Assembly (NCBI GenBank): GCA_030149205.1
Contig: JASBSB010000007.1
Location: forward strand, 510,001 to 542,000
Source: Candidatus Heimdallarchaeota archaeon
GTDB taxonomy: Archaea > Asgardarchaeota > Heimdallarchaeia > Heimdallarchaeales > Kariarchaeaceae
Length of the DNA stretch: 32,000 nucleotides
Direction: 5' to 3'
The position numbers and the translations under genes were made by a program. The notes beneath the pieces were generated by a model. That model was given only the letters and a program-made list of their open reading frames with translations, ran no database searches and was not told the origin of the DNA. Below, in pieces: positions 12,589 to 15,799 of the stretch (within the stretch, counting starts at the first letter, position 1; every line of letters starts with the position of its first letter).

Positions 12589-13626
12589 GTGGAAGATAAT
12601 TCCCTCTCAAAAAATGAATTGGTCAGTCTCTATGCAAAGGCCAAGAGTGATGATATTAACGCTCTGATCCAGCTTGGGTTTTACTACGTTTCTGATGAAG
12701 ACCCCGAAGAGGGATTAGTTTGGTTGAGAAAGGCAGTTGCCTCCGACAAATCTAAGGCCAATGATATAGCAACTCATTTGTTGGAATTAAACAAAGGTGC
12801 AGAGGCAGTTGAATTTTACAAAATAGCTGCCGAAGACGGAAATCTAGGCAGTATGTCAAATTTGGCAATGCTACTAAAACAAAGTGGTAAACGTGACCAG
12901 GCTGAGAATTGGTACATGATTGCAGCTCATCAAGGATATGTTGTTGCGATACATAACCTAGGGGTTTTGTATTTAGAGACAGAAGAAAACGTAGAAAAGG
13001 GGATAGAATGGCTAACAAAAGCTGCCAAACAGGGCCATAAGGAGGCTTGGATGACTCTTGGAGAATACTACTCAACTCATGATCAACCTGATAAGGCATT
13101 GGAATACTTCAATTTTGCATTAAACCAGGGAGATAAAAGGGCAATAACCTATATTGCAGAGATAATGATGGAGAAAGGACAAGAAGAAGAAGCTATAGAG
13201 CTGTTAGAAGAGTCTTGGAAAGAAGGAGATAAAGAGGCAATTTCAACACTTGGCTTTCTTTATTGGAGTTTGGGAAATGTGACCAAGGCTCAAGAACTGT
13301 TTGAAATAGGGATAGAAGAGGAAAATGAGCTTTGTATATTTAACATGGGGAGTCTACTCTTAGAAGAGTTTGAAGATAAAGATGGGGCAAGGACGTATTT
13401 CTTAAGAGCAAGTGAAATGGGGAATCCTTTTGCGATGTTCAATCTTGGTGTTTTAGAACTTGAAGAAGAGAACCTCGAACAAGCGGAAATTTGGTTAGAA
13501 AAATCAGCTCAAGAGGGATTCAGAGAGGCAATGTTGGCTTTAGCAAACCTTTATGAATTTCAGGGCAAAGATGAGGCTTCAAAAGAGTGGAAAGTCAAGG
13601 CTGATCTTGTTCATTCTCACCAGTAG
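12589..13626 (+). CDS. SEL1-like/TPR repeat protein
   Basis: About nine repeats of the type A.xLG.xY...A.xW.xKAA.xG (e.g. AIHNLGVLY...GIEWLTKAAKQG); acidic; no signal peptide. Confidence 0.9.
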   Translation: MEDNSLSKNELVSLYAKAKSDDINALIQLGFYYVSDEDPEEGLVWLRKAVASDKSKANDIATHLLELNKGAEAVEFYKIAAEDGNLGSMSNLAMLLKQSGKRDQAENWYMIAAHQGYVVAIHNLGVLYLETEENVEKGIEWLTKAAKQGHKEAWMTLGEYYSTHDQPDKALEYFNFALNQGDKRAITYIAEIMMEKGQEEEAIELLEESWKEGDKEAISTLGFLYWSLGNVTKAQELFEIGIEEENELCIFNMGSLLLEEFEDKDGARTYFLRASEMGNPFAMFNLGVLELEEENLEQAEIWLEKSAQEGFREAMLALANLYEFQGKDEASKEWKVKADLVHSHQ

Positions 13627-15799
13627 GTTCAACAATCTCCCAAGAATGGTCATCTACTTTTCTAATAAATCCTGCAGCTTCCAGTTGAAGCAATGTGCGG
13701 GATATTAGAACTTGACTGGTTGAATTAATCCTGAGTTTGATTTCCTGAGTGTCTTTAATTCCATCCATAACCATCAAGGCAAGGATCTCAAATTGTGGTT
13801 CTTTAAGCAATACCGATATTGGGCTCCCTAGTTCAGCTTTCAAGATTCCTTGTTCCTTAAGTCTTTTTGCCAGTTCCAACAAGATTTCTTCATTGTTTTT
13901 AATCTTCTCACTTCTCTCCTCTTGATCTTTTTTCTCCTTCTCTAATCTCTGGATCTCATTCTCTCTCCTCTGATCCTCATTTATCGTTGCATCAAGTTTT
14001 TGGGAGAGAGTCCAATATCCATTAATTTTTTGTTCTATCATTCGATCAGCTTCCAATTTTCTAAGTGTCCTGTCAACCAAGACAGGTGAAATATTTGATA
14101 CCTTTTGTTTAAGTTGTTCAGCACTTAAATCCTCATTCAATTTTAAAGCTTGAATGATTTGAAACTCAGGGATCTGAACAAAAGCACTGTCATCCAAGTC
14201 AGGGCTTGAAGCATACCCTAACTTAAAGAGAGCTTTCTTGAACCCTCTTAGAGACTCATCATTTTCTGTTGGGGAGTTTTTTGAAGTGTTTTTATTGGAA
14301 GATTCTGGTTTTGGTTTTTCCTTTGTCAGCCTGGCTTCAATCTTTGGGTTTATTGCATACTGGTATGCTTCTTCTACTATTAGTTGATCCGCTGAAAGAT
14401 TACTAAGCATCATTGATAGAGATTCTGACTCTTCAACAGAGTTTTCAATCTCTGATCGTGATATGGGACCTTTTGCGGCAATAATCTTCAATAATGTATA
14501 CTCATTTGTTTGAGTCGAAAGTTTCAATTTTTCAGGGTTATAACCCTTTTCTTTTAGTAATAAGATGATTGGATCCTCCAGATCAGTGGGGCGAACCAAA
14601 CTGTCGTCTGTCCTCTTAGGTTCAGGTCTCACACTTACATCATCAGATATATTTTCATCATTAATGCTTTTTGAAATCATCTCTTCTTTTTGTTCAGGCA
14701 CCTCTGGTAGTTCCTCTTGATTACTTTCAGATATTTTGGTCTTGGTTGCTCTAGAATTTACGCTAAGCAAGGAGTTAATTTTACCAACCTTCGAAGGTGA
14801 GAGTTTCACTCTACGTAGAGCTCCTAAAAGTTGGTCACCTATCACCCAGGCATAATCAGATTCATCTTGACGAATCATACCATCAGACGCTAGATTTGAA
14901 AGCTCCATTGCTAGAAGAATCTCTGGGTTTACATCCTTCTCTATTTCTGAGTCGGAAACAGGTTGCTTTTCATTGACCACGTTTAATATTTCGAAGGTAG
15001 GTTTATTGATTATTTCAAGTATGTCTACAGTGTTAAAGTAATTTAGATTTGCTAATGCAGTTGCCAGTGTAATCTTCTCTAAGTTATCAGGCTGCTCCAC
15101 AAAAAATTGATGCTCCTCAGGGGTTTCTTCTTTAATTTCCTCTGCAAAAGGACTATATTTTGGATTTAAAGCCTCTTTAAGTCGATCACTTAGCATCCAT
15201 TTATAATTGCCAGTTTGTGCAATTAACCCCTCACCAACAAGATTTGAAAGAATCATCTGAAGAGAGGATGTAGTTTTTGCAGCGAGCTCTAGCTCAGTTG
15301 TAGAAATCTCCTCCTTCTCAGAGAGTATATTCAATACCTCTAATTCTGGGATATTCAACAAATCGCTGTATTTCTGATAAGGGTAAGTTATGCCAAGGGT
15401 TTCCAGTGCCTCCACTAGTCTCCTTATGCCAGATTTTTTGGGAGAAGTACCTCTTTTATACATGGGCTCATCAGAATCAGTCAACTCAGATTCTTTCAAT
15501 TCTCCCTCTTTTTTCATCAGTATTTCTTTGAAGTCTTGAGAAATCGTCCATTTATAGTTCGTATTAAGTTGAACTATTAGGTTATCAATTTTCAAGTTTG
15601 ACAAAGTCATTGCAAGCGAGGAATTTTCAGGGAGGAAGGGTGTAAGTTCATCCTCTGCGACTTCGTTGTTATCAAAAATGTATTTTAAGATTTTAATTTC
15701 AGTCACTGTCTCTAATTCACGCAGAGAATTAACTGAGGGAAGTGTATAACCCTTTTTCTTTAATTCCTCAGCGATGATTTTTAGTGTAACATCTTTCAT
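13595..15799 (-). CDS. Hypothetical protein with six extended winged-helix-like repeats and a coiled coil
   Basis: Six ~85-aa units with consensus helix-LxxxG(Y/I)...PE(F/L)xIL...S/T-xxEL...LxMxLSNL/RTLxxL..xG.I...(Y)xW.I; charged coiled coil at about aa 605-645. Confidence 0.8.
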   Translation of the reverse strand: MKDVTLKIIAEELKKKGYTLPSVNSLRELETVTEIKILKYIFDNNEVAEDELTPFLPENSSLAMTLSNLKIDNLIVQLNTNYKWTISQDFKEILMKKEGELKESELTDSDEPMYKRGTSPKKSGIRRLVEALETLGITYPYQKYSDLLNIPELEVLNILSEKEEISTTELELAAKTTSSLQMILSNLVGEGLIAQTGNYKWMLSDRLKEALNPKYSPFAEEIKEETPEEHQFFVEQPDNLEKITLATALANLNYFNTVDILEIINKPTFEILNVVNEKQPVSDSEIEKDVNPEILLAMELSNLASDGMIRQDESDYAWVIGDQLLGALRRVKLSPSKVGKINSLLSVNSRATKTKISESNQEELPEVPEQKEEMISKSINDENISDDVSVRPEPKRTDDSLVRPTDLEDPIILLLKEKGYNPEKLKLSTQTNEYTLLKIIAAKGPISRSEIENSVEESESLSMMLSNLSADQLIVEEAYQYAINPKIEARLTKEKPKPESSNKNTSKNSPTENDESLRGFKKALFKLGYASSPDLDDSAFVQIPEFQIIQALKLNEDLSAEQLKQKVSNISPVLVDRTLRKLEADRMIEQKINGYWTLSQKLDATINEDQRRENEIQRLEKEKKDQEERSEKIKNNEEILLELAKRLKEQGILKAELGSPISVLLKEPQFEILALMVMDGIKDTQEIKLRINSTSQVLISRTLLQLEAAGFIRKVDDHSWEIVEPTGENEQDQP

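Follow-up and report, generated by a model that had tools for sequence, protein, structure and literature searches.

Asgard genomes are mined for precursors of eukaryotic machines, and strings of winged helices readily draw that label. Whether the label fits is the question raised by a gene on the minus strand (13595..15799) of a 32,000-nucleotide (nt) stretch of Candidatus Heimdallarchaeota archaeon DNA (contig JASBSB010000007.1, positions 510,001 to 542,000; the whole stretch is called the window below). The gene is one uninterrupted open reading frame (ORF) with a stop-free translation of 734 amino acids (aa) and an isoelectric point (pI) of 4.76; no signal peptide or transmembrane segment was seen when the translation was inspected. 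We find that the protein is a chain of six winged helix-turn-helix (wHTH) units with linkers of 32-86 aa between them, and that it carries an undescribed, lineage-restricted and rapidly diverging domain subtype of a very common fold. The array looks like one family's invention from ordinary MarR-like domains.

The units were defined with a hidden Markov model (HMM) seeded on six units proposed in a first-pass annotation and iterated over all relatives. On the 734-aa protein, this model finds exactly six units of about 80 aa each, scoring 49-78 bits, with bounds that lie within a few residues of the ranges first proposed. Over the whole family, it finds 141 units in 42 proteins. The units also find each other by BLASTP (units 1 and 2, E 4e-13; units 2 and 3, 1e-14; units 3 and 4, 1e-9; units 5 and 6, 2e-8). 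They are of two types. Units 1-4 belong to an acidic "LSNL" type (type A) and units 5 and 6 to an "SPVLxxRT" type (type B), so the layout is A-A-A-A-B-helix-B, in which the type-B units flank a 40-aa charged helix. Matches between the types are seen by BLASTP (3e-4 and 7e-5), and their profiles are homologous (hhalign 99.7%, E 8e-26).

Type A, units 1-4: Unit 1 (aa 9-90; 15530..15775) has the third-helix (H3) motif LAMTLSNL, the wing motif NYKW and a net charge of -5. The corresponding values are LQMILSNL, NYKW and -7 for unit 2 (aa 128-207; 15179..15418), and LAMELSNL, DYAW and -11 for unit 3 (aa 245-324; 14828..15067), which matches the equivalent position in most orthologues. A long linker of low complexity follows (aa 325-410; 14570..14827), poorly conserved among orthologues in both length and sequence, and then unit 4 (aa 411-487; 14339..14569; net charge -3). 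Across 83 instances family-wide, the type-A consensus is ...PExxIL...SxSLxLSNLxADxLIxQxxxYxW, with the Ser and Asn of LSNL invariant and the Asp conserved to 95%.

Type B, units 5 and 6: Unit 5 (aa 520-602; 13994..14242; net charge +1) and unit 6 (aa 643-725; 13625..13873; net charge -1) lie on either side of the charged, ER/K-rich helix (aa 603-642; 13874..13993); all these features are on the minus strand. The consensus over 44 instances is ...GYI...IPEFEIL...IK...PVxVxRxxSKLEAD..., with Val and Leu invariant and Arg conserved to 95%. The motifs listed in the first-pass annotation are all present: LxxxG(Y/I) and (P)E(F/L)xIL, LxMxLSNL for units 1-4, SxVLxxRTL for units 5-6, and the aromatic residues of the wings.

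The fold was modelled with AlphaFold2 for residues 400-734, using a 39-row alignment of the C-terminal part. The model is confident (predicted local distance difference test, pLDDT, 88.7) and has a predicted template modelling (pTM) score of 0.58. A single-sequence prediction of the full 734-aa protein reached a pLDDT of 40, so the modelled fold is restricted to units 4-6. These three units are modelled alike. Each opens with helix H0, which ends in the GY motif, and continues through a short helix and H1 to a short strand; H2 and H3 come next, then the two-stranded wing, and a last helix closes the unit on its C-terminal side. Unit 4 corresponds to model residues 11-92, with pLDDT values mostly between 85 and 96, and the linker residues aa 400-405 are below 50. 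The succession H1-b1-H2-H3-b2-b3, with the two-stranded wing after the third helix, is that of a winged helix-turn-helix. In the model, units 4-6 are wHTH domains extended at both ends by an N-terminal and a C-terminal helix. Units 1-3 likely share this extended fold by homology, and the earlier description of the units as extended winged helices agrees with both results.

The segment between units 5 and 6 had been called a coiled coil. The long helix itself is real in the model, where it is continuous over aa 600-635 and then kinks into H0 of unit 6. Its composition, however, fits another kind of helix: 63% of the residues are E, K, R, D or Q, there are 12 i/i+4 pairs of opposite charge, and hydrophobic residues at heptad positions are nearly absent. 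Hence, it looks more like a stiff single charged helix of the ER/K type than a classical coiled coil.

The protein had been proposed as unrecognised, and this is borne out, as Pfam, NCBIfam and PDB profiles yield just marginal MarR-type matches and no characterised family. Unit 6 scores 24.5 bits against Pfam MarR (PF01047), for which the cut-off is 24.6; type-B units of two paralogues, P0014 (41 bits) and P0015 (32.7 bits), exceed it. In PDB profile searches, type B matches a MarR structure at E 2.6e-4. The best E value for type A is 0.05, with a MarR structure at 0.07, and for the full-length profile it is 0.17. The best structural neighbours of the individual domains are prokaryotic MarR, Fur and IclR domains. 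ESM Atlas returns generic wHTH clusters only (feature score up to 0.86, shape TM by query up to 0.30), PHROGs just weak generic wHTH matches, and PADLOC only insignificant wHTH matches of the CARF/Csa3 type. A full-text literature search on Asgard archaea, winged helices and repeats gave no paper that describes the six-winged-helix protein. A survey of ESCRT components (PMC11188069) treats winged-helix and coiled-coil building blocks in general, not this Kariarchaeaceae family.

The distribution of the family is narrow. HMMER searches against 1.84 billion cluster representatives gave 41 proteins at E 1e-3 or better, and a word-indexed search of 5.8 billion proteins gave one relative. The type-A profile matches all ten sampled genomes of the window's own family, Kariarchaeaceae, and none of 290 genomes from 29 other Asgard families, 90 of these genomes being of high quality. 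Within the genus, divergence is fast. Full-length counterparts in three same-genus genomes are at most 33% identical, whereas the aminotransferase encoded two genes away keeps 76-78% identity in these three genomes and 70-72% over the family as a whole. The domain subtype diverges fast and, among the genomes sampled, is confined to Kariarchaeaceae. Near-identical copies of the gene occur in two more metagenome studies (hydrothermal vent and sediment); they differ by three substitutions, two of them synonymous and one giving S104P in a linker. Among the public runs listed as holding the gene, none is of RNA.

Each of the three same-genus genomes has a single protein with the A-A-A-A-B-helix-B layout. 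As these counterparts are not syntenic, they are putative orthologues. Position-matched units from separate proteins score 50-67 bits, against 33-50 bits between one unit and another of the 734-aa protein, and this position-specific excess is clearest for units 3, 5 and 6. Because same-position units score higher, the array is older than the split of the Kariarchaeaceae genera and is not a recent expansion.

Other Kariarchaeaceae genomes hold two-unit paralogues, in which a type-A and a type-B module correspond to units 4-5 of the 734-aa protein; by the type-A profile, none was found in the source genome (3.3 Mb, 93.5% complete). The larger forms of 540-980 aa (P0019, P0021-P0023, P0029, P0033, P0038, P0039 and P0042; e.g., L009:2455-4662) begin with a helical domain whose SNAP/TPR matches are marginal, at 23-31 bits where the cut-off is 25. 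This is followed by a long acidic, probably disordered linker, an acidic-aromatic motif (roughly D-I-E-x-L-F-D-D-x-L-x-E-S-x-E-D-F) and the type A + type B pair. Forms of about 400 aa (P0014, P0017, P0020 and others) have a degenerate N-terminal unit instead of the SNAP/TPR-like domain; P0014 is deposited as "hypothetical protein, Candidatus Kariarchaeaceae archaeon". These paralogues differ from the 734-aa protein in having two units rather than six, extra N-terminal domains, and the conserved acidic-aromatic motif, which the 734-aa protein lacks. In some genomes, family members neighbour each other: a seven-unit and a six-unit protein lie side by side at G004:C77:8361-10736, and two convergent SNAP/TPR-type paralogues at L009:2455-6329 of a metagenome contig. 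This points to expansion by local duplication.

A possible source of the domains is found in the same genome. Its sole other match is a 242-aa protein (C7:216659-217384) that begins as a coiled coil and ends in a winged helix. The gene for a 247-aa protein of the same build lies just upstream (C7:216659-218127 for the adjacent pair, minus strand). Also on the minus strand, 97 nt downstream of the pair, is the gene for a Ras/Rab-like small GTPase of 188 aa, so that the three genes together span C7:215999-218127. The winged helix of the 242-aa protein belongs to type B, aligning with the type-B profile at 39% identity (hhalign 99.4%, E 4e-21), and as a single query this protein finds matches in 71 of 301 Asgard genomes from many families. 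Its order of helix and then winged helix recalls the charged helix and unit 6. The proteins of about 245 aa have one winged helix after a coiled coil of about 170 aa, without the H0 LxxxGY helix and without an LSNL unit; the 734-aa protein, in contrast, has six units and merely a 40-aa charged helix. The winged helix of the 242-aa protein is likely the ancestor type of units 5-6, and duplication from a coiled-coil + winged-helix protein is the simplest history. The winged helix of this phylum-wide protein would have been duplicated in the ancestor of Kariarchaeaceae, and one duplicate would have shed its basic residues and become the LSNL type. The modules would then have multiplied into arrays and diverged quickly. 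Apparently, a DNA-binding fold was converted to a non-basic module and then multiplied.

What such a chain might bind can be approached from the surface of its units. Units 1-4 had been described as non-basic, and this holds well beyond the single protein: their net charges of -3 to -11 compare with a family-wide type-A mean of -6.0, and only 1% of type-A units are at zero or above. Among the 83 type-A units, no column of helix 3 or the wing tip is basic in at least half of the units, except one wing Lys. The outward face of H3 is the DNA-reading face in classical wHTH proteins. A helical-wheel projection places the two invariant residues of type A, Ser and Asn, on this face, along with a conserved Ser four residues upstream. 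With the Tyr and Trp of the wing, this Ser-x3-Ser-Asn patch may form a conserved binding surface that would not suit a polyanion. In type B, one Arg and some three other basic positions are retained; helix 3 has the Arg (95%) and Lys (86% and majority). The proposal that units 5-6 are two nucleic-acid-binding modules is in keeping with these residues but is weakened by the family mean net charge of -3.8, and it stands as a possible, weak assignment.

We tentatively favour a lineage-specific multivalent adaptor or scaffold of the beads-on-a-string kind, a reading to which we give nearly an even chance. The protein would be a soluble acidic chain of six extended wHTH domains on flexible linkers, without an enzymatic domain. 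Its four type-A domains would be similar docking modules on flexible tethers of 37-86 aa. Each would most likely take up a protein, a peptide or some further ligand that is not nucleic acid, and the partners are probably of one kind throughout. The MarR-like type-B pair, held apart by the stiff charged helix, might offer two sites for nucleic acid or for a second partner. The scaffold role is inferred, as are a ligand other than nucleic acid for type A and possible nucleic-acid binding by type B.

Several points weigh against this reading. The exposure of the Ser/Ser/Asn patch comes from helical-wheel reasoning, the fold of units 1-3 from homology, and the inter-domain geometry from a model with a pTM of 0.58. 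Charge alone is insufficient to argue against nucleic-acid binding by type A: Ser and Asn of a recognition helix are able to contact nucleic acid, so type-A units could still do so. For type B, the acidic family average weakens the nucleic-acid idea. The gene neighbourhoods of orthologues and paralogues are not conserved and give no functional link to a partner, ligand or nucleic acid.

A bolder version of the adaptor reading has perhaps one chance in several. Here, the Ser-x3-Ser-Asn/Tyr-x-Trp surface of the acidic LSNL winged helix would be a new peptide- or protein-recognition module and the basis of a private Kariarchaeaceae adaptor network, derived as a whole from the phylum-wide coiled-coil + winged-helix protein. 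Its members would be the six-unit chain, the seven-unit chains and the two-unit SNAP/TPR-like fusions with the acidic-aromatic motif. If true, archaea would have reinvented on their own the conversion of DNA-binding winged helices into protein scaffolds that eukaryotes made.

Among the explanations that compete with an adaptor, a multi-site DNA-binding protein survives best, although we consider it unlikely. In this case, all six winged helices would sit on DNA, as those of MarR, TrmB and Fur do, and the protein would be a transcription regulator or would bridge chromatin or the nucleoid. The pI of 4.76, the acidic units 1-4 and the lack of a widely kept basic column in type-A helix 3 and wing tip speak against it. 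Moreover, classical regulators of the MarR, TrmB and Fur kinds are one-domain dimers and not six-domain chains, and no conserved divergent target gene or operon accompanies the gene.

A gene for a TPR/Sel1-repeat protein (12589-13626, plus strand) is convergent with the winged-helix gene and shares 32 nt with the 3' end of the latter. An NAD-kinase-like gene is divergent to the winged-helix gene. In the same-genus genomes G001 and G003, the TPR/Sel1 gene lies about 4 kb from the aminotransferase gene and not beside the winged-helix gene, which is about 45 kb away in G001 and on a separate contig in G003. A bactofilin-like gene (17653-18615, minus strand) lies two genes upstream of the winged-helix gene. 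A weak bactofilin-like ORF (L004:3354-4019, E 0.0098) is found directly upstream of a seven-unit relative in genome G007; the nearness at both loci may be coincidence. At the orthologue and paralogue loci examined, there is no conserved gene neighbourhood, and the neighbours change from locus to locus.

It is improbable, more so than DNA binding, that the protein is a fast-evolving conflict protein, i.e., a sensor, decoy or regulator directed against viruses or mobile elements, whose acidic winged helices would mimic or capture components of the invader. The identity of 33% within the genus, set against 76-78% for the aminotransferase, would suit such a role, and so would a lineage-restricted family that expanded into paralogues. 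So would the locus of P0014 (L010:490-9251, a JGI metagenome contig). There, P0014 closes a run of genes on one strand, after a STAND-like AAA ATPase of 557 aa and a pair of giant coiled-coil proteins; one of the pair has 436 aa, and the other, of 1476 aa, is apolipoprotein-like and has an N-terminal TrmB-type wHTH. Three further paralogue loci, however, do not show this STAND arrangement, and the PADLOC matches are insignificant. The genes in the window are those of ordinary chromosome (ABC transporter, ketoacyl synthase, aminotransferase, NAD-kinase-like gene, DUF6962, bactofilin, RadA). Fast divergence is also not unique to the winged-helix gene, as the TPR/Sel1 neighbour is likewise just 33-34% identical to its same-genus counterparts.

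We consider it very improbable that the protein is related or ancestral to one of the eukaryotic scaffolds with tandem winged helices (RPC62/C82, RPC39/C34, ESCRT-II or UFL1-DDRGK1). The proposed eukaryotic-signature-like character is not supported: among the genomes sampled, type A was found in one family only, and the best per-domain structural neighbours are prokaryotic MarR, Fur and IclR domains rather than Vps22/25/36, RPC82/34 or TFIIIC. Whole-chain Foldseek matches to RPC62, RPC39 and SelB are weak and of low TM, such as any winged-helix string is expected to give. The six-winged-helix protein looks like a lineage-specific invention and not a forerunner of eukaryotic winged-helix complexes.

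Among known systems, the MarR proteins (PF01047/PF12802; PDB 9qdr, 2fa5, 6pco and 2a61) come close. These are single-domain homodimers of about 150 aa with basic recognition helices and wings, whereas here six domains are joined in one acidic chain, apparently without the MarR-type C-terminal pair of dimerisation helices. Most basic DNA-contact residues of recognition helix and wing are missing from type A, and units 1-4 carry the invariant Ser-Asn in place of basic helix-3 residues. The N-terminal DNA-binding domain of Fur/PerR and the N-terminal domain of phage T4 MotA (2fu4, 2fe3, 6k4y_M and 1bja) resemble just one unit at a time; their metal-sensing or dimerisation domains are absent here, and tandem repetition is absent there.

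In whole-chain comparison with the model of residues 400-734, the top Foldseek ranks are human RPC62 (2xub, E 2.2e-3), a chain of the Pol III pre-initiation complex (8iue_P), SelB WH2-4, PF0095 and yeast C82. The template modelling (TM) scores are 0.15-0.22, the root-mean-square deviations (rmsd) 17-22 Å, and none reaches E 1e-3. We read them as matches in sequence order, of the sort that any two winged-helix strings would give, and not as a common architecture. They call for caution with structure-based "eukaryotic signature" calls, as Foldseek places RPC62 on top for a mere chain of generic domains.

RPC62/C82: This protein (2xub, 5afq and 7z1o_O) likewise combines several extended winged helices with a long helix in a single chain. 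Over the modelled residues 400-734, its domain arrangement fails to superpose (TM 0.22, rmsd 18.7 Å), it has four domains rather than six, the phyletic pattern differs, and there is no sequence similarity. With the model of residues 400-734, RPC62/C82 was not among the 50 best structural matches by Z. Searches with Pfam and PDB profiles at E up to 10 returned no RPC82, RPC34, EAP30, Vps25, UFL1 or DDRGK family.

ESCRT-II and UFL1/DDRGK1: Apart from the lack of EAP30 and Vps25 profile matches, no ESCRT genes adjoin the six-winged-helix gene or its relatives at the loci examined, and ESCRT-II chains are not among the structural matches listed, where one domain fills the lists. For UFL1/DDRGK1, no PDB-profile chain was found either, and neither protein is among the Foldseek or VIA matches listed.

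SelB: Four winged helices follow an EF-Tu-like GTPase in SelB, and the GTPase domain is absent from the 734-aa protein. SelB WH2-4 matches residues 400-734 weakly (E 8e-3, TM 0.16).

The protein has no tie to any long-standing open question. Eukaryotes made scaffolds from DNA-binding winged helices in ESCRT-II, the cullins, subunits of Pol III and kleisin-binding proteins, and the Kariarchaeaceae array may be a small natural example of winged helices turning into scaffold parts.

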